Counted from the first letter of the stretch, positions 4,308-13,449 are shown. The stretch: 64,000 bases of DNA from Escherichia coli (GCF_024223415.1 NZ_CP100500.1); one strand, 5' to 3'. Translations and numbers: made by a program. The notes: generated by a model from the sequence alone, not told the origin.

Positions 4308-5015
4308 ATGAAACCCGTCGTGCTGGTGGTGGATGATGACACGGCTATCTGCGCACTGTTGCAGGACGTGTTAAGTGAACATGTCTTTACGGTTTCAGTC
4401 TGCCATACCGGACAGGAGGCCATATTGCGTATTGAGGGCGATCCTGACATTGCGCTGGTGGTGCTGGATATGATGCTACCCGATACCAACGGCCTGAGGG
4501 TATTGCAGCAAATCCAGAAACTGCGTCCGACATTGCCGGTGGTGATGTTGACCGGCATGGGCAGTGAGTCTGATGTGGTGGTCGGGCTGGAAATGGGCGC
4601 GGATGATTACATCTGCAAACCGTTCACCCCGCGGGTGGTGGTCGCACGACTGAAAGCGGTGTTGCGACGGGTTGGTGCGCTGGCGGTTAATGACGAGAAA
4701 AGCGCCGGGCTGTCATTCAATGGCTGGTATCTCGATACCATGCGCTGCCAGTTGCACAATCCGCTTCAGCAACATGTCGAGTTAACTCAGGGCGAATATG
4801 GCTTGTTACTGGCTCTGGCGCAAAACGCGCGTCGGGTATTGAGCCGCGAGCAGTTGCTGGCGTTCACCCACAGCGACAGCGTGGAGGTGTTTGATCGCAC
4901 CATCGACGTATTAATCATGCGCTTACGACGCAAAATCGAACTCAACCCGCATCAGCCGATGTTGATTAAAACTCTGCGCGGTCTGGGGTATGTCTTCGCT
5001 GCCGACGTGCATTAA
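4308..5015 (+). CDS. OmpR/PhoB-family response regulator (receiver + winged-helix)
   Basis: ORF 4290..5015; GGAG 5-8 nt upstream of ATG 4308; receiver residues VVDDD, VLDMMLPD, CKPF; C-terminal winged helix (RTIDVLIMRLRRKIE, LRGLGYVF). Not a K-12 gene at this position. Confidence 0.85.
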   Translation: MKPVVLVVDDDTAICALLQDVLSEHVFTVSVCHTGQEAILRIEGDPDIALVVLDMMLPDTNGLRVLQQIQKLRPTLPVVMLTGMGSESDVVVGLEMGADDYICKPFTPRVVVARLKAVLRRVGALAVNDEKSAGLSFNGWYLDTMRCQLHNPLQQHVELTQGEYGLLLALAQNARRVLSREQLLAFTHSDSVEVFDRTIDVLIMRLRRKIELNPHQPMLIKTLRGLGYVFAADVH

Positions 5016-6013
5016 TCCGACATTTCTGTTTGCAGCTCTTCCAGCGTTTTCGCCCCGTCGATGGCATTGGCGCATAACAGGCTTGCCCGCGCGCAGGCGT
5101 GTGCCAGTTTGATGCTCTCGGTAAGCGTCCAGCGTTCATGGCAGCCATATAAAAATCCGGCACAAAATGCATCGCCCGCGCCGACGCTGCCGATAATTTC
5201 CCGTTGTTCTAACTTTTGCGAAGGGATCCACACGCCGCCCTGTTCTGGGGTCTCTCCCCACGCCCCTTCCGGGCAGTGGATCACCACCCGCTGGCGCACG
5301 CCCGCATCTAACAGTTCACGCGCGGCGGCAGCAATATGCGCGATATGCGGTTCGCCGTTGGGTAACCGAATTTCCAGCCCGCTAAACTCCCCGGCCTCCA
5401 GTTCGTTAATTACCAGATAATCCAGATGGCGCAACGCGGGCAGCACCAGTGGCTGATAACGCGGATCGCCCTTACGGGAGACCAGGTCGAGTGAGGTTTC
5501 AAAGCCAGTATCACGCATTTGCGCCAGCAGGCGTGCGCTACGGGTGCCGTAAACATCGTCCGGCATATCCAGGCTGTCGAGCAACAGTAAATAGCCGAGA
5601 TGGAAAATCTTCATGGTGTTATCGAGCTGATCGAACGCCGGAAGATCCAAAAGTCTGTTTGCACCCGGCGAATGGAAAAACGTCCGCTGCCCGCTTGGGT
5701 CTGTCATCACCTGCGACATCGACGTCGGGGCAAAGGTAGTGCGCTGCACATGCTGACGATTGACGTGATATTGCTCAAGCATCGCCATGATGTAATCGCC
5801 GTCGCTGTCCTGACCGATTAGCCCAACCGCCTGTAACGGCAGCCCGGTGCGCATTTTCGCCAGCGTCAGCAGGACGTTAAGCGGCGCACCGCCGGTGGAG
5901 CGTTCGCTGTGGGTGATCTCCGCCAGCCAGCCGCGCTCTGGCCACTGGATAATCTGATGGACGTGGTCAACCAACATATTGCCTGCGGCGATAATCCCTT
6001 TACGCTCCATCAT
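5012..6013 (-). CDS. PfkB/ribokinase-family sugar kinase
   Basis: 333-aa ORF; N-terminal glycine-rich GIIAAGNMLVDH and C-terminal GAGDAF anion-hole motif typical of the PfkB family; 4-bp overlap with upstream aldolase gene. Confidence 0.85.
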   Translation of the reverse strand: MMERKGIIAAGNMLVDHVHQIIQWPERGWLAEITHSERSTGGAPLNVLLTLAKMRTGLPLQAVGLIGQDSDGDYIMAMLEQYHVNRQHVQRTTFAPTSMSQVMTDPSGQRTFFHSPGANRLLDLPAFDQLDNTMKIFHLGYLLLLDSLDMPDDVYGTRSARLLAQMRDTGFETSLDLVSRKGDPRYQPLVLPALRHLDYLVINELEAGEFSGLEIRLPNGEPHIAHIAAAARELLDAGVRQRVVIHCPEGAWGETPEQGGVWIPSQKLEQREIIGSVGAGDAFCAGFLYGCHERWTLTESIKLAHACARASLLCANAIDGAKTLEELQTEMSD

Positions 6014-6870
6014 GCCTGCCCCGCACTGCCAAAAATACGCATCTGTTGTGCAACCGTATCGCTGATGGCGGCTTCCACTGCCAGCAGTAACTCGGCAAAC
6101 TCGTCATACATCGGCTGACGGTGCGCCATTCGGGCCTCAACGGCAGCCAGCGCCGCTTGCGACATGCCAGTGTAGAAATTGATTTTGTGGATACCCAGTT
6201 CGATGGCGCGGCGGAAATCGGCATCGCTAATCCCTGAGCCGCCGTGTAATACCAGCGGGATAGCAGCCTGCTGGCGGATAGCGTCGAGGCGCGGGAAATC
6301 GAGTTTCGGTTCGCCGCGATATTTGCCGTGTGCATTGCCAATCGCCACGGCCAACGCGTCAATGCCGGTACGGTCGACAAAATCACGCGCCAGTTGCGGA
6401 TCGGTAAACAGGGATTCATCGGCATGACCATAGAGTGCACCGCCTTCGTCGCCACCCACCGCGCCCAGTTCAGCTTCTACCGATACGCCAACGGCATGGC
6501 ACATTTTCACCACTTCCCGCGTCTGGCGGACATTTTCTTCATACCCCAGCGTGGAGCCATCAAACATTACCGAGCTGAATCCCAGCCGCAACGCTTGCAC
6601 CACCGATTCAAAATGCAGTCCGTGATCGAGATTTAACACCACCGGAATGGCATGACGCGCCGCTTCAAATTTCACTGTCTCGACCAGGGAATCCAGCGAG
6701 ATATATTTAAAATGTACTTCGGCAATGTTGATAATAAAGGGCGAACGTTCTTGTCTGGCAGCAGCAAACAAGGCGCGTAAAAAGTGCGAGTCCAGCACAT
6801 TAAACGCACCTAACGAATAGTGATGTTCGCGGGCATGTGCCAGCCCTTCAGCGAGATAAATCAATGGCAT
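6010..6870 (-). CDS. Class II ketose-bisphosphate aldolase family (GatY/KbaY/FbaA-like)
   Basis: 286-aa ORF; N-terminal region and metal-binding His pattern resemble class II tagatose/fructose-bisphosphate aldolases. Confidence 0.8.
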   Translation of the reverse strand: MPLIYLAEGLAHAREHHYSLGAFNVLDSHFLRALFAAARQERSPFIINIAEVHFKYISLDSLVETVKFEAARHAIPVVLNLDHGLHFESVVQALRLGFSSVMFDGSTLGYEENVRQTREVVKMCHAVGVSVEAELGAVGGDEGGALYGHADESLFTDPQLARDFVDRTGIDALAVAIGNAHGKYRGEPKLDFPRLDAIRQQAAIPLVLHGGSGISDADFRRAIELGIHKINFYTGMSQAALAAVEARMAHRQPMYDEFAELLLAVEAAISDTVAQQMRIFGSAGQA

Positions 6871-6884
6871 AACGTTATCCTTAT

Positions 6885-7568
6885 TCAGCGGAACTGGCGG
6901 TATTCGTTACACAATACCAACTGTGCAGGTTCGTCTTCGTCAATCAGGTTGTAGCGGTCCAGTGGCTGTAAAAAGTGGTTATCGTGGTCGTCGTCATTGA
7001 CAGAAGAGACTTCGCCAACCAGAACATCGCCAAAGCCGGTTTCCGCCCAAAAGCTGTGATACAGGCCGGGCGGCAGGCAGATACTTTCGCCGGGAGACAG
7101 GCGCAACTGAGTGCCTGCAGTATGTTTCTGGCGGCAGCCGTCTATCACCACCGTAACGTCACTATCAGCCGTTTGCTCGTTACTATCGGCATTCCACAGT
7201 TCAACAATTAAATTACCGCCGCCGCGATTGATAATGTCCTCACGCTTACGCCAGTGAAAATGCATTGGCGTGACCTGCGCATCGCGCACATGCATGATCT
7301 TCTCGGCGTAACATTTCACATACGGCATTCCTTTTGCTGAGCCGTTACGTAGGGTAAACAGCGTCAGCCCGTGTGCTGCAAAGTTGTTGCGACCAAAAGC
7401 GGTAACATCCCAGCCGAGTTTAAGATCAAAAACCTCCTCCCACGCGGCGGTGTCGAGCTGCTGCCATTGAGCAGGCGAGAAACTGGCAAAGGGCGGCAGA
7501 TGTACGTCATGTTGCGAAAAGAATTGCCGTGTATGGCCGAGAATGTCGTTTATAGCGGAGCGTTTCAT
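6885..7568 (-). CDS. Cupin-fold sugar isomerase, D-lyxose/D-mannose isomerase-like
   Basis: 227-aa ORF; resembles the structurally characterised D-lyxose isomerase of E. coli O157:H7 (Z5688), recalled from memory. Confidence 0.65.
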   Translation of the reverse strand: MKRSAINDILGHTRQFFSQHDVHLPPFASFSPAQWQQLDTAAWEEVFDLKLGWDVTAFGRNNFAAHGLTLFTLRNGSAKGMPYVKCYAEKIMHVRDAQVTPMHFHWRKREDIINRGGGNLIVELWNADSNEQTADSDVTVVIDGCRQKHTAGTQLRLSPGESICLPPGLYHSFWAETGFGDVLVGEVSSVNDDDHDNHFLQPLDRYNLIDEDEPAQLVLCNEYRQFR

Positions 7569-7622
7569 CGAAAGCGTTCTCCTTAGCGGTGACCGGGCAG
7601 CTGCGCCGCCCGGCGTGTGGAC

Positions 7623-8564
7623 TTATTTCACCGTCCAGCCTTTGTAATTGCCGACGTTGTTTTTATCGATCATCGTCACCGGGATCAGCACCGGCTCTTT
7701 CGGCGCAGGTTTGCCCTGCAAAATGTCGTAGCCAATTTCCACCGCTTTCGCTGCCATCACCTGGGGATCTTGCGCCGGAGTAGCGACAAACAACGAGTTC
7801 TCACGCTTGAGCGCCTCTTCGGCGTCCGGGCTTCCGTCCACACCGACAATAAAGAACTCGTTACGTTGCGCCTGTTTTGCTGCCAGATCGGCACCGATTG
7901 CGGTGGGATCGTTAATCGCAAATACGCCGTCGATCTTCGGATTTGCCGCCAGCAGTCCCGTCATTACCTCCAGCCCGCCTTCACGACTGCCTTTCGCGTT
8001 CTGGTTGTCAGAGAGCACTTTGATGTCAGGATGGCGTTTAAATTCAGTCTGGCATCCTTCGACGCGGTTTTGCACGGCGGATACCGGCGGGCCGTTGATG
8101 ATCACCACATTGCCTTTGCCTTTCAGGCGATCGGTGATGTATTTACAGGCCATTTCGCCCGCCTGGGTATTATCGGAGGTGATGGTGGCATCAGCACCTT
8201 CTGCCGCTACGTCAACCGCGACGACTACGATCCCGGCATCTTTCGCCCGTTTCACCGCCGGGCCGATCCCTTTTGAATCGGCAGCGTTGAGGATAATCAT
8301 ATCGACGTTAGCGGCGATAAAGTTGTCTATCTGCGACACCTGCTGACCCAGATCGTAGCCGCTGGAAACCAGCGTCACTTTGACGTTATCGCCTGCCAGT
8401 TTGCGTGCTTCCAGCTCCGCGCCTTTGGTGATCTGCACGAAGAACGGGTTCGCCAGATCGCCCACCGTTACGCCTATTGATTTCAGTTCTTTCGCTTGGG
8501 CGAACGGTGCTGCGGCCAGCAGTGCGCCTGCACAGAGCGCGGTCACTAAGGGCTTCAATCTCAT
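7623..8564 (-). CDS. Periplasmic sugar-binding protein of ABC transporter (RbsB-like)
   Basis: 313-aa ORF; cleavable signal peptide (…AAAPFAQA|KE); type I periplasmic binding protein fold signatures. Confidence 0.85.
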   Translation of the reverse strand: MRLKPLVTALCAGALLAAAPFAQAKELKSIGVTVGDLANPFFVQITKGAELEARKLAGDNVKVTLVSSGYDLGQQVSQIDNFIAANVDMIILNAADSKGIGPAVKRAKDAGIVVVAVDVAAEGADATITSDNTQAGEMACKYITDRLKGKGNVVIINGPPVSAVQNRVEGCQTEFKRHPDIKVLSDNQNAKGSREGGLEVMTGLLAANPKIDGVFAINDPTAIGADLAAKQAQRNEFFIVGVDGSPDAEEALKRENSLFVATPAQDPQVMAAKAVEIGYDILQGKPAPKEPVLIPVTMIDKNNVGNYKGWTVK

Positions 8565-8582
8565 GCTGTATTCCTCATGTGT

Positions 8583-9557
8583 TTATGCACTTTGATGGTG
8601 TCGGGTACGGTATTTGTCGATCAGCACCGCAATGATGATCACCGCCCCTTTGATCACCAGTTGCCAGAAGTAAGAGACGCCCATTAAGGTCATGCCATTG
8701 TTGAGCGTGGCGATAATTAGCGCGCCGACCAGCGTGCCGGTGATGGTGCCGATGCCGCCGACAAAACTGGTGCCGCCGAGGATCACCGCTGCAATGGCAT
8801 CCAGTTCGTAACCCATGCCTAAGTTGCCGTTGGCGCTGTACAGCCGTGAGGCGCTCATAATCCCGCCAAGCCCAGAAAGCAGGCCGCTCATGCCATAAAC
8901 AAACAGCAGCACCAGCCAGACCTTAATGCCGGTAAGACGCGCCGCCTGCATATTGCCGCCGACGGCGTAGATATGAACGCCAAGCGTGGTGCGGCGCAGA
9001 ATAAACCAGCACACCACGATCACCGCCAGCGCAATCACCACCAGCCATGGGACCGGCCCGAGATAGTTGTTGCCTATCCACTCGAAATTAATGTTGGAGT
9101 TGATAACCGTGGTGCCGTCCGCCAGCAGATACGCCGCCCCGCGCAGCGCCGTATAGGTGCCAAGCGTAACGATAAACGGTGGCAATCCGGCAAAGGCCAC
9201 CAGCGCGCCGTTGAACAGCCCCAGCAGCAGGCCGAGCATCAGCGCTGCCGGGATCGACAGCATGGCGAACTCAGGGCTAAGGGAGACGACCATCGCCGCC
9301 ACCGCTGTGGTGCCGAGGATCGAACCCACGGAAAGATCGATCCCGCCGGTCAAAATGATGAAGGTCATCCCCGCCGCCAGAACAATGTTGATCGATGCCT
9401 GGCGGGTAATATTCAGCAGGTTGCTTTCGGTAAAAAAGTTTGGCGCGATAAAGCCAAATACCGCCACGATCAGAATCAAAATGGGCAAGATGCCGACCGT
9501 TTGCATCAGATCGCTCATCAGCATTTTTTTGGCAGAGGTTTTTGCAGAGGTCGTCAT
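8583..9557 (-). CDS. ABC sugar transporter permease (RbsC-like)
   Basis: 324-aa highly hydrophobic ORF with multiple predicted TM helices; position between SBP and ATPase genes. Confidence 0.85.
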
Positions 9558-11074
9558 GAGGTTACCGCCTGGGAATGGGCGTCGTTGACGCCAGTCGCTA
9601 AGGTCATAATGTTTTCCTGGGTGATGTTTTTGCCGTTTAACTCACCGGCAATGCTGCCTTCGCGCATCACATAGACGCGATCGCTCATTCCCACTATCTC
9701 CGGCAGTTCGCTGGAGATCATCAGGATCGCCACGCCCTTGCGCGCCATCTCGTTCATGATCCGGTAGATCTCACTTTTGGCGCCAACGTCCACGCCGCGG
9801 GTGGGTTCATCGAGCAGTAAAATGCGCGGGCCAATCGCCACCCAGCGGGAGATCAACAGTTTTTGCTGATTGCCGCCGGAAAGCCCGCCCGCGCGTACCT
9901 GGGCATGAGGCACGCGAATGTTGAGCAACTTAATGGCGTCATCGGAAATGGTTTGCGCTTTTTTGCGATTGAGCATTCCCCAGCGGGCATCGCGCTCCAG
10001 GGTTGCCATGGTGATGTTTTCGGCTGCTGCCATTTCAAGGAATAAGCCTTGTTCTTTGCGGTTTTCGGTGAGAAAACCAATGCCAAGATCGATGGCTTCG
10101 CGCGGGGAGTGGATCACCACCGGTTCACCATCGACTTCAATCATTCCGCCTGTCGCTTTCCGCACGCCGAAGATCAACTGCGCCAGTTCGGAACGTCCGG
10201 CACCTACCAGTCCGGCGAGGCCAACAATTTCGCCGGAACGCACCAGCAGGCTACTCGGCTGGACTTTGCCGCCGTCGGTCAGGTGGTGAACATTCAGGCG
10301 GGCTTTACCGAGCGGGATATCGCGCTCTTTATTGAACAGATCGCTCAGTGGCCTGCCGACCATCATCCGCACCAGCTCCCCGGCATTGAGGTTATCGCGG
10401 GTCAGGCTGCCAACGTATTGCCCGTCGCGCAGCACGCTGACGCGATCGGAAAGCTCATACACTTCCGCCATACGGTGGCTGATGTAGATAATCGCCATCC
10501 CTTCATCGCGCAGCCGCATAATCAGTTCAAACAGACGGTGAGTTTCACGGGAGGAGAGGGCAGCGGTGGGTTCGTCCATCACCAGAATGCGGCTGTTGCG
10601 ATGTAGTGCGCGGGCGATTTCGACCTGCTGTTGCTCGGCAATGGTCAGCGTCATGACCTTATCGCTGGCGTTAAACTGCGCGCCGAGGCGGTCGATCACT
10701 TTTTGCGCCTGCACTAGCATCTCTTTACGCTGCACCAGCCCGCCGTGGGAAAGCTCGCTGCCGAGAAAAATATTTTCTGCCACCGACAGATTCGGTGCCA
10801 GCTGCATCTCCTGATAAATCAGCGTAATACCGGCGCTTAAGGCATCTTTTGGCGTGCGAATGTGAAAGGGCTTGCCGTCTATGAGGATCTCGCCGCTGGT
10901 GGCGGTATACGCCCCCGCCAGCACCTTCATCAGCGTGCTTTTTCCCGCGCCGTTTTCCCCCATCAGGGCATGGATCTCGCCAGGGTAGACCGTCAAATCC
11001 ACCCCTTTGAGCGCATAAAATTTGCCGAAGGCTTTGGCAATATTGCGCATCTCCAGAACTGGCGTGCTGTTCAT
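9554..11074 (-). CDS. ABC sugar transporter ATPase with duplicated nucleotide-binding domains (RbsA-like)
   Basis: ORF 9554..11131; likely start [14 protein letters not shown] at 11074; two Walker A motifs ([18 protein letters not shown]) and two LSGG signature motifs. Confidence 0.85.
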
Positions 11075-11187
11075 GGTGGACTCCTGCGAGGTTGTCGATA
11101 TCAGCACTCCATCACAGGAAAGTAAATGCAAAATGTCAGAAGCCGTTCATATTTGTCATATTGCGATTTTTCTTCACGGAGCGTGAT

Positions 11188-13449
11188 ATGGCGCACCCCG
11201 GACGTCATTTTTTTGCCAGCGCGCGCGGGCGATTGCTGCTTTTGAATTTGCTGGTGGTGGCGGTGACGTTGATGGTCAGCGGCGTGGCGGTAATGGGCTT
11301 TCGTCATGCCAGCCAGATGCAGGAGCTGGTGCAGCAGCAAACGGTGGATGATATGACCGGCAGCCTGAATCTGGCGCGCGACACGGCAAACGTGGCAACG
11401 GCGGCGGTGCGATTGTCGCAGGTGGTGGGAGCGCTGGAATATAAAGGCGAAGCCGAGCGGTTGCAGGAGACACAGCGGGCATTAAAAAGCTCGCTTGCAC
11501 AACTGGCGAACGCGCCTTTAGCGCAGCAGGAAGCCGGGCTGGTGACGCGCATCATCACGCGTAGCAACGAACTGCAAACCAGCGTCGGTGGAATGCTGGA
11601 GCGCGGGCAAAGGCGGCATCTGGAGCGCAACGCGCTGTTAAGTTCGCTGTATCAAAACTTAAGTTATCTGCGGCATCTGCAAAAAGTCACTCACGCGCAA
11701 GATGATATTTTGCTTAACGAGATGAACCGACTGATTGTTGCCGCTATTGCCACCCCCGCGCCGCAGGCGATTATTCATCAACTGGTCGGGGTAATGTCTG
11801 CGTTGCCGACCCACAGCGATACGCCGTTGGTTAACACGCTACTCAATGATTTTAATCGTGAACTGCGTAAACTCGCGCCGCTTTCAGCCGCTCTGGAGCA
11901 AAGCGATCTGGCAATCAGCTGGTATATGTTTCACATCAAAGCGCTGGTGGCGATCCTCAATGGCGACATCAACCGTTACGCCGAACAGGTGGCGACGCTC
12001 TCCGGTCAGCGCGTGGCGCAAAGTTACCAGGATTTGCGCTCCGGCGAGAGGCTGATCATGATTTTCGCCCTGTTAGCGGTGGTGATCACCGCGTTTGCAG
12101 GTTGGTATATCTATCGCAATCTCGGCTCTAACCTGACGGCGATTTCCAGCGCCATGAGCCGCCTGGCGCACGGTGAAGCGGATGTCAGCTTTCCGGCGTT
12201 ACAGCGGCGTGATGAGTTGGGTGAACTGGCGCGCGCCTTTAACGTTTTTGCCCGCAATACCGCGTCACTCGAACGAACGTCACGGCTGTTGAAAGAGAAA
12301 ACCATGCAGATGGAGATTGCCCAAACCGAGCGGCAGGGGCTGGAAGAGGCGCTATTGCACAGCCAGAAGCTGAAAGCGGTTGGGCAACTGACGGGCGGGC
12401 TGGCCCATGATTTTAATAATCTGCTGGCGGTGATTATTGGCAGCCTGGAGCTGGTGAATCCGGACTCGCCAGACGCGCCGCGAATACAGCGGGCGCTGCA
12501 AGCTGCCGAACGTGGGGCGCTACTGACACAACGACTGCTGGCGTTTTCCCGCAAGCAGTCCTTACATCCGCAAGCCGTTGAACTGAAAACATTGCTGGAA
12601 GAGTTAAGCGAATTAATGCGCCACTCCTTACCGGCAACGCTGGCGCTGGAGATTGAAGCGCAGTCTCCGGCGTGGCCCGCGTGGATTGACATCAGCCAAC
12701 TGGAAAATGCCATCATCAACCTGGTGATGAACGCCCGTGACGCGATGGAAGGGCAGACGGGAATCATCAAAATTCGTACCTGGAATCAGCGCGTTACTCG
12801 CAGCAGTGGGCAGCGTCAGGACATGGTGGCACTGGAGGTCATCGATCATGGCAGCGGTATGTCGCAGGCGGTGAAAAGCCAGGTATTTGAGCCATTCTTT
12901 ACCACCAAACAGACGGGCAGCGGCAGCGGGCTGGGTTTGTCGATGGTCTATGGTTTTGTGCGCCAGTCCGGTGGGCGCGTTGAAATTGAAAGCGCGCCGG
13001 GGCAGGGGACAACGGTCAGATTACAGCTTCCCCGCGCGCTGACGGCGGCGAAAAACCTATCGCCAGCGGCAGTAGAACAGGCTTCTGTCAGCGGCGATAA
13101 ACTGGTGTTAGTGCTGGAAGATGAAGCCGCGGTGCGCCAGACCATCTGCGAACAGTTGCACCTGCTGGGCTATTTGACGCTGGAAGCAAGCAGCGGCGAA
13201 CAGGCGCTGGATCTGCTGGCGGCATCAGCAGAAATCGATATTTTTATCAGCGATTTAATGCTCCCCGGCGGCATGAGCGGCGCAGAAGTGGTCAATGCGG
13301 CCCGCAAACTTTACCCGCACCTGACGCTGCTACTCATCAGCGGTCAGGATTTACGCCCCAGCCATAACCCCGCGCTGCCAGACGTGGCGCTGCTGCGCAA
13401 ACCTTTTACCCGCGCGCAGTTGGCGCAGGCGCTGGGGCAAGAGAATTGA
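11188..13449 (+). CDS. Hybrid sensor histidine kinase (2 TM + ~260-aa extracytoplasmic sensor, HAMP, HisKA, HATPase_c, C-terminal receiver; no Hpt)
   Basis: ORF 11092..13449; start MAHPGRHFF at 11188; H-box GLAHDFNNLL; receiver residues LVLEDE, ISDLMLPGG, LRKPF; divergent from the ABC operon with ~113 bp spacer. Confidence 0.85.
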   Translation: MAHPGRHFFASARGRLLLLNLLVVAVTLMVSGVAVMGFRHASQMQELVQQQTVDDMTGSLNLARDTANVATAAVRLSQVVGALEYKGEAERLQETQRALKSSLAQLANAPLAQQEAGLVTRIITRSNELQTSVGGMLERGQRRHLERNALLSSLYQNLSYLRHLQKVTHAQDDILLNEMNRLIVAAIATPAPQAIIHQLVGVMSALPTHSDTPLVNTLLNDFNRELRKLAPLSAALEQSDLAISWYMFHIKALVAILNGDINRYAEQVATLSGQRVAQSYQDLRSGERLIMIFALLAVVITAFAGWYIYRNLGSNLTAISSAMSRLAHGEADVSFPALQRRDELGELARAFNVFARNTASLERTSRLLKEKTMQMEIAQTERQGLEEALLHSQKLKAVGQLTGGLAHDFNNLLAVIIGSLELVNPDSPDAPRIQRALQAAERGALLTQRLLAFSRKQSLHPQAVELKTLLEELSELMRHSLPATLALEIEAQSPAWPAWIDISQLENAIINLVMNARDAMEGQTGIIKIRTWNQRVTRSSGQRQDMVALEVIDHGSGMSQAVKSQVFEPFFTTKQTGSGSGLGLSMVYGFVRQSGGRVEIESAPGQGTTVRLQLPRALTAAKNLSPAAVEQASVSGDKLVLVLEDEAAVRQTICEQLHLLGYLTLEASSGEQALDLLAASAEIDIFISDLMLPGGMSGAEVVNAARKLYPHLTLLLISGQDLRPSHNPALPDVALLRKPFTRAQLAQALGQEN

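Follow-up and report, generated by a model that had tools for sequence, protein, structure and literature searches.

The closest described counterpart of the locus examined here is the lmuXYZIAK operon on island OI-167 of Escherichia coli O157:H7 EDL933, which was named and assigned to lyxose and mannose utilization in 2023 (Yang et al., mBio, PMC10128022). Reverse transcription PCR (RT-PCR) in EDL933 showed that all six lmu genes are co-transcribed, and the transcription start was mapped (PMC10128022). In the same work, LmuI converted D-lyxose to D-xylulose and D-mannose to D-fructose, with a preference for D-lyxose and a Km for mannose of 19.8 mM, and purified LmuK phosphorylated fructose in an ADP-coupled assay whose readout is ADP formation only. 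Growth on lyxose was lost on deletion of lmuI or lmuZYX but was unaffected by deletion of lmuK or lmuA, and a manA mutant grew slowly on mannose in an lmuKAIZYX-dependent manner when LmvR was overexpressed (PMC10128022). The working model given in the Fig. 3A legend runs from aldose to ketose to ketose phosphate, followed by aldolase cleavage (PMC10128022). The window analyzed here, a stretch of 64,000 nucleotides from E. coli (GCF_024223415.1, NZ_CP100500.1), carries adjacent minus-strand genes for a sugar isomerase, a class II aldolase, and a PfkB-family kinase. This trio is very probably lmuI-lmuA-lmuK, the distal end of the lmuXYZIAK operon of OI-167, and the general ketose-phosphate scheme very probably applies to it.

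The lmuI-lmuA-lmuK stretch is 99.5% identical to that of EDL933, where the annotation shows the same layout, and the insertion site, gene order, and LmvR binding box are the same in both. Compared with their EDL933 counterparts, LmuK differs at one residue (C247Y), LmuA at two, and LmuI at three (conservative), while the regulator LmvR and the binding protein LmuZ are 100% identical; the sensor kinase LmvK has 753 residues here and 756 in EDL933, with 98.5% identity and a single 3-residue gap. Because the locus is near-identical to the published OI-167 operon, it is a cluster that is already known. An earlier interpretation of this DNA, the sequence-only reading, had treated it as unassigned, and on that point it has been overtaken by the 2023 work. 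Other parts of it stood. The three genes lie on the minus strand where it had placed them, with open reading frames (ORFs) and family matches to isomerase, kinase, and class II aldolase far beyond chance; its proposal that they are co-transcribed is borne out by the RT-PCR in EDL933 (PMC10128022), and its route from aldose through ketose and ketose phosphate to cleavage is the published working model. Overall, the earlier interpretation is partly supported.

Transcription proceeds through lmuI (7568 to 6885), lmuA (6870 to 6010), and lmuK (6013 to 5012). The stop codon of lmuI is separated from the start of lmuA by 14 nt with an AAGGA ribosome-binding site in between. The overlapping stop and start codons noted in the sequence-only reading were read directly as ATGA at 6010-6013 on the minus strand: the TGA stop of lmuA (6012-6010) runs into the ATG of lmuK (6013-6011), a 4-nt overlap indicating translational coupling of the aldolase and the kinase.

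The first enzyme of the trio, LmuI (6885-7568, minus strand; 227 residues), is a cupin of the D-lyxose/D-mannose isomerase family (Pfam Lyx_isomer, PF07385; NF051472). It matched NCBIfam NF051472, D-lyxose/D-mannose isomerase, over its full length with 439 bits against a cutoff of 350 (E 3e-132), and its residues 1-227 matched PDB 3KMH/3MPB, the crystallized and assayed protein Z5688 ("EcSI"), at E 5.6e-160.

LmuK (5012-6013, minus strand; 333 residues) is a carbohydrate kinase of the PfkB/ribokinase family, as given by the precomputed PF00294 assignment on identical proteins. The glycines of its GG motif (G41, G42) and residues G278, G280, and D281 of its GAGD motif, which includes the catalytic Asp, were invariant in 30 members of its subfamily; this subfamily comprises 321 representative clusters at E<1e-30. 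LmuK was compared with curated NCBIfam equivalogs for ribokinase, fructokinase, 1-phosphofructokinase, Pfk-2, IolC, tagatose kinase, KdgK, heptose kinase, and nucleoside kinase, and all scores fell below cutoff, with the N-terminal domain of IolC at the top (73 bits against 300). Matches to PDB structures likewise reached 43.5 bits at most, led by YihV, with ketohexokinase at E ~3e-4. Kinases acting at C1, C5, and C6 scored alike, and with matches this weak and mixed the curated models and solved structures gave no assignment of specificity; LmuK instead belongs to a PfkB subfamily of its own. A nucleoside or ADP-heptose kinase was considered and rejected, as those models reached only ~22-25 bits and the purified enzyme phosphorylates fructose (PMC10128022), in agreement with the sugar kinase that the sequence-only reading had assumed.

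LmuA (6010-6870, minus strand; 286 residues) is a class II (zinc-dependent) aldolase of the type that forms dihydroxyacetone phosphate (DHAP). It matched NCBIfam NF005284, named "ketose 1,6-bisphosphate aldolase," with 575 bits against a cutoff of 406 (E 2e-173), and was 37-41% identical to class IIb fructose-1,6-bisphosphate (FBP) aldolases, GatY, and YdjI (Staphylococcus aureus FBP aldolase, 41%; YdjI, 40%; GatY, 37%). To this protein were aligned the Helicobacter pylori FBP aldolase (verified against PDB 3C4U), four Bacillus/Staphylococcus-type FBP aldolases from PDB alignments, E. coli GatY and YdjI, and all kinase-adjacent aldolases from the survey described below. In the alignment, LmuA retained N24, D82, H83, D104, E132, E134, E142, H181, H209, N231, and T234. 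Its zinc histidines are H83, H181, and H209, and it keeps Asp82, which polarizes the C4 hydroxyl, the catalytic-loop Glu142, and the 1-phosphate site formed by G210, N231, and T234; residues H83, H181, H209, D82, E142, G210, and T234 align with H83, H180, H210, D82, E142, G211, and T256 of the H. pylori enzyme. LmuA thus belongs to the class II FBP/tagatose-1,6-bisphosphate (TBP) aldolase superfamily (PF01116), and because the zinc, catalytic, and 1-phosphate residues are conserved, it should be an active DHAP-forming aldolase.

The distal end of the LmuA pocket is different. A structural study of class II sulfofructose-phosphate aldolases attributes binding of the FBP 6-phosphate to Ser49, Arg259, and, from the partner subunit, Arg280 (H. 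pylori numbering; PMC10665668). In LmuA these positions are taken by Ala50, Ser237, and the segment YDEFAELL, where FBP aldolases and GatY show "(Y/F)DPRK(Y/F)L," and the pocket is further remodeled with Tyr233 and Phe257. The Ser49 position was Ala, within an Ala-Glu-Val/Ile motif, in all 26 of the 26 kinase-adjacent aldolases. Judged at the level of sequence only, LmuA falls outside a strict definition of FBP/TBP aldolases by their distal 6-phosphate ligands, with the caveat that enteric LmuA orthologues keep an arginine, R251, four residues upstream of the Arg280 position. As the distal-phosphate ligands are absent while the 1-phosphate site is kept, LmuA is probably not a canonical bisphosphate aldolase, and the pattern favors a monophosphorylated substrate whose distal end carries no charge, for example fructose-1-phosphate. 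The loss of the same ligands in YdjI, a proven ketose-1-phosphate aldolase, speaks for this as well.

A profile of the LmuK subfamily was scanned over one genome per species, yielding 80 loci, of which 75 were non-enteric; in each locus, proteins related to those of the island were sought and all neighboring ORFs were clustered. Of the 75 non-enteric loci, 19 had an LmuA-like aldolase no more than 3 kb away from the kinase and ~19 had a Lyx_isomer-type cupin nearby, with Pfam confirmation of the cupin in a Clostridial and a Pedobacter example; the complete trio was present in at least 7. The order of the trio varied, being kinase-isomerase-aldolase in Clostridia, aldolase-kinase-isomerase in a Bacteroidales metagenome-assembled genome (MAG), and isomerase-aldolase-kinase in enterics. 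This recurrence supports a functional link between the kinase and the aldolase. In Bacteroidetes, GH92 alpha-mannosidases adjoin the kinase-isomerase pair, which supports mannose as the natural substrate there. LmuK-like kinases also adjoin genes resembling mannitol dehydrogenase, another source of free fructose, and free fructose could be the common denominator of the kinase neighborhoods.

Two further arrangements were observed around these kinases. In seven Clostridia MAGs (L031, L059, L063, L072, L080, L082, and L085, around position 10000 of each locus), a recurrent cassette combines an AraC regulator, a PIG-L/BshB1-like deacetylase, a NagB-like protein, and an LmuK-like kinase; its last member is an LmuA-like aldolase in some loci and resembles mannitol-1-phosphate dehydrogenase in others. 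The cassette looks to be a so far undescribed route for amino sugars or polyols that uses the kinase/aldolase module. In two Pedobacter loci and one from Rhizobiaceae (L060, L066, and L084, respectively; ~7300-11000), genes for a Lyx_isomer cupin and an LmuK-like kinase are preceded by those for a Gfo/Idh/MocA oxidoreductase, weakly similar to levoglucosan dehydrogenase, and for a conserved protein of ~275 residues and unknown family. Here a different upstream chemistry feeds the same kinase.

Which sugar the kinase and aldolase serve can be addressed through an island relative in metagenomic sequence (L002/L003), which shares the gene layout of the island and encodes a kinase with 50% identity to LmuK. 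This relative carries, at 4994-6439 between the genes for the binding protein and the isomerase, an extra gene for the xylulokinase XylB (TIGR01312, 576.7 bits, cutoff 380), and it retains both the aldolase and the kinase. The variant adjoins malT-malPQ on an apparently enterobacterial contig. Because lmuK and lmuA are dispensable on lyxose and the XylB-bearing variant still keeps both, the LmuK/LmuA pair most likely serves a hexose branch. The GH92 mannosidases and mannitol-dehydrogenase-like genes beside LmuK-like kinases elsewhere point the same way. In the proposed mechanism, xylulose would pass through XylB into the pentose phosphate pathway; mannose would be converted by LmuI to fructose, which LmuK would phosphorylate, and LmuA would then split a 1-phosphorylated ketose derived from fructose into DHAP and a C3 aldehyde. 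The sequence-only reading had kept xylulose from lyxose apart from this kinase and aldolase, and the deletion phenotypes and the XylB of the island relative bear this out; its framing of the trio as a route used "rather than pentose-phosphate entry" did not hold, since the genetics favor entry of lyxose through XylB into the pentose phosphate pathway. Ketohexokinase-type enzymes accept xylulose, as in the synthetic xylulose-1-phosphate pathway, and xylulose and fructose share their C3/C4 configuration, so the pair might instead exist mainly for a pentose route from D-lyxose through D-xylulose to xylulose-1-phosphate, made by LmuK, and on to DHAP and glycolaldehyde, released by LmuA. The preference of LmuI for D-lyxose and the induction of the operon by lyxose (PMC10128022) would fit such a route, but lyxose growth requires lmuI and lmuZYX and not lmuK or lmuA (PMC10128022). 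With a dedicated XylB added in the related island as well, xylulose-1-phosphate formation is unlikely as the main role and is left with a slim chance. Lyxose isomerases are promiscuous, and the true substrate might also be another sugar with the C2/C3 configuration of mannose, for example D-talose via tagatose phosphate, 6-deoxy-D-mannose, or an amino-sugar-derived ketose, with lyxose and mannose being side activities. The remodeled distal pocket of LmuA (Tyr233, Phe257) and the Clostridial kinases that sit with PIG-L-type deacetylase and NagB-like genes are consistent with this, as are the high Km of LmuI for mannose and the dispensability of the operon in vivo (PMC10128022). Against it stand the identity of the inducers as mannose and lyxose, a transporter ~60% identical to a mannose ABC (ATP-binding cassette) transporter, and the phosphorylation of fructose by LmuK (PMC10128022), together with the GH92 mannosidases beside the kinase-isomerase pair in Bacteroidetes, so that we regard another sugar as an outside chance.

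Within the hexose branch we lean slightly toward phosphorylation of fructose at C1 by LmuK and direct cleavage of fructose-1-phosphate by LmuA, a call that falls just short of even. Several observations weigh against this direct route. Many loci pair the kinase with the isomerase and have no aldolase nearby, an arrangement easiest explained by a fructose-6-phosphate product that enters glycolysis directly. In one Clostridia MAG (L058), a FruK-like 1-phosphofructokinase/hexose-phosphate kinase gene (8694-9611; TIGR03168, 251 bits against 216) lies directly upstream of the kinase-isomerase-aldolase trio, which suggests a bisphosphate intermediate in that organism; among the 80 loci, a second kinase of the PfkB family was seen only here. 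In relatives of LmuA from Clostridia and Bacteroidales, a basic residue, Arg or Lys, is retained near the Arg280 position, and two alignment methods differ as to its equivalence with Arg280. The operon contains no gene for handling glyceraldehyde, and it adds little to mannose growth or mouse colonization in enterohemorrhagic E. coli (EHEC) (PMC10128022); given this low contribution, the physiological substrate may be something else. The frequent aldolase-free pairs, the FruK-like neighbor, and the basic residue in some relatives would all agree with a more conventional route, as would the NCBIfam name of LmuA and its 41% identity to the S. aureus FBP aldolase. LmuK would then make fructose-6-phosphate or fructose-1-phosphate, PfkA/PfkB or FruK of the host would add the second phosphate, and LmuA would be an auxiliary FBP aldolase brought by the island. 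This is a serious possibility that we hold somewhat below even, as LmuA is without equivalents of Ser49, Arg259, and Arg280 for the 6-phosphate and a redundant housekeeping activity is unlikely to stay linked and translationally coupled to the kinase across phyla. In Agrobacterium, a tagatose-6-phosphate epimerase of the class II aldolase family is paired with a PfkB tagatose kinase, and this precedent for a PfkB kinase next to a PF01116 protein, along with the weak match of LmuK to the tagatose kinase model (E 8.9e-6), would allow LmuA to be a ketose-6-phosphate 4-epimerase in vivo and not an aldolase. Such an enzyme would be expected to retain the distal 6-phosphate site but could do without the 1-phosphate site, which is the opposite of the pattern in LmuA; on these conserved and lost sites in the alignment the epimerase was rejected, and it is scarcely credible.

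Direct cleavage of fructose-1-phosphate also leads to a broader proposal, which we put forward tentatively as something that may well not hold. LmuK and LmuA could represent a widespread bacterial pair of a PfkB ketohexokinase making fructose-1-phosphate and a class II aldolase clade yielding DHAP and glyceraldehyde, with Ala-Glu-Val replacing Ser-Glu-Gly as the putative mark of the clade, joined in enterics by loss of the DPR arginine. The pair would be a metal-dependent bacterial counterpart of liver fructolysis, fed by a mannose isomerase, a mannitol dehydrogenase, or an amino-sugar deaminase. The kinase-aldolase pair does recur in gut Clostridia, Bacteroidales, and Enterobacteriaceae beside mannose-releasing or fructose-producing enzymes. 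If the direct fructose-1-phosphate route is true, it would establish a new class of specificity among class II aldolases, show that the name "ketose 1,6-bisphosphate aldolase" used in databases needs correction, and account for the presence of an aldolase on the island. The main biological message of OI-167, which is LmvK/LmvR signaling to virulence genes rather than carbon supply (PMC10128022), would be unchanged. A search of the literature on lyxose-isomerase gene clusters, fructose-1-phosphate routes, and the Herbaspirillum transporter turned up nothing more. What is new here is the comparative evidence, indirect and drawn from sequence, that bears on the regiochemistry of LmuK and the substrate of LmuA.

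The trio forms the distal half of a six-gene unit whose proximal genes encode an ABC importer. These are lmuX (9554-11074, minus strand; ATPase of 506 residues from ATG 11074, RefSeq coding sequence of 1521 nt), lmuY (8583-9557, minus strand; permease, by RbsC-like matches and RefSeq annotation), and lmuZ (7623-8564, minus strand; periplasmic sugar-binding protein with RbsB-like matches). An AGGAG ribosome-binding site precedes the lmuX ATG at 11074. The 54-nt gap between lmuZ and lmuI folds into a hairpin (7592-7614, minus strand) with a GC-rich 10-bp stem, a 3-nt loop, and no U-tract, though its stability is not significant against shuffled sequences (z -1.1). This hairpin is not a terminator, because the RT-PCR in EDL933 shows read-through (PMC10128022); it is possibly an mRNA stabilizer and may tune the expression of the transporter relative to the enzymes. 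A consensus scan found no terminator-like sites at gene junctions, and the counts from promoter and terminator consensus scans were at or below shuffle expectation.

The operon is flanked by the genes of the two-component system LmvK/LmvR, which is encoded by the island and through which mannose and lyxose induce lmu transcription (PMC10128022). The gene lmvR (4308-5015, plus strand) encodes the response regulator of the OmpR/PhoB family that activates the operon (WP_000805929.1, OmpR-like NCBIfam matches; function from PMC10128022), and lmvK (11188-13449, plus strand), divergent from lmuX, encodes a hybrid sensor histidine kinase (RefSeq coding sequence; function from PMC10128022). Mechanical ORF calls push the starts of lmuX (TTG, to 11131) and lmvK to upstream TTG codons and so create an apparent overlap (11092-11131), while with the RefSeq starts (ATG 11074 and ATG 11188) the two genes are separated by a divergent promoter region of 113 bp containing the LmvR box. 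This box, ATATGACAAATATGA (ATATGA-N3-ATATGA; 11147-11161, minus strand), lies in the lmuX promoter 73 nt upstream of the lmuX ATG, is the sole exact match in the window, and is the same motif as the repeat on which LmvR was placed by DNase I footprinting (PMC10128022). At the other end of the operon, the convergent genes lmuK (minus strand) and lmvR (plus strand) overlap at their stop codons (TTAA, 5012-5015). This overlap leaves no space for a terminator, and transcription of each gene therefore goes antisense into the other.

The 9.3-kb region holding the operon and its regulators matches several E. coli chromosomes at 100% identity, including those of NCTC9112, KV7, and an O78 strain. In annotated records the island is flanked by yjcS and yjdP/phnP and replaces the allose locus. 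It was found in 410-421 of 5,426 complete E. coli RefSeq genomes, chromosomal in every case. The island has been called almost exclusive to EHEC (PMC10128022). The carriers seen here include non-O157 types, namely O78, O145:H28, O55:H7, and O169:H41, and isolates from pig, poultry, mink, goat, and freshwater. The window also comes from a non-O157 background and shows 100% identity to strains outside O157.

Beyond OI-167, the lmu trio shares its logic most clearly with the sulfoglycolytic Embden-Meyerhof-Parnas pathway (YihS, YihV, and YihT or the class II aldolase SqiA), in which an isomerase is followed by a PfkB kinase acting at C1 and an aldolase that gives DHAP and a C3 aldehyde. SqiA is, like LmuA, a PF01116 aldolase without the partner-subunit Arg280 (PMC10665668). 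The two systems differ in that LmuK matches YihV with only 43.5 bits, LmuI has a cupin fold unlike YihS, and the lmu operon has no sulfonate-handling gene and responds to mannose and lyxose. E. coli YdjH/YdjI is likewise an adjacent pair of a PfkB ketose 1-kinase and a PF01116 aldolase acting on a monophosphorylated ketose. YdjI, 40% identical to LmuA, is a proven ketose-1-phosphate aldolase and, like LmuA, is without the distal ligands Ser49 and the DPR arginine. YdjH, however, is only 24% identical to LmuK, the YdjH/YdjI pair prefers long acidic ketoses (according to RefSeq product names), and the ydj cluster has no isomerase.

GatY and KbaY, which act in tagatose/galactitol and N-acetylgalactosamine metabolism, belong to the same aldolase family as LmuA and are also encoded inside a sugar operon. 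GatY keeps Thr50 and the DPR arginine, needs GatZ, and receives substrates phosphorylated by the phosphotransferase system, whereas LmuA is without these ligands and its operon has an ABC importer. If LmuK acts at C1, the chemistry of the pair would be the same as that of mammalian fructolysis by ketohexokinase and aldolase B and of the synthetic xylulose-1-phosphate pathway, with the difference that aldolase B is a class I, Schiff-base enzyme and LmuA a class II aldolase.

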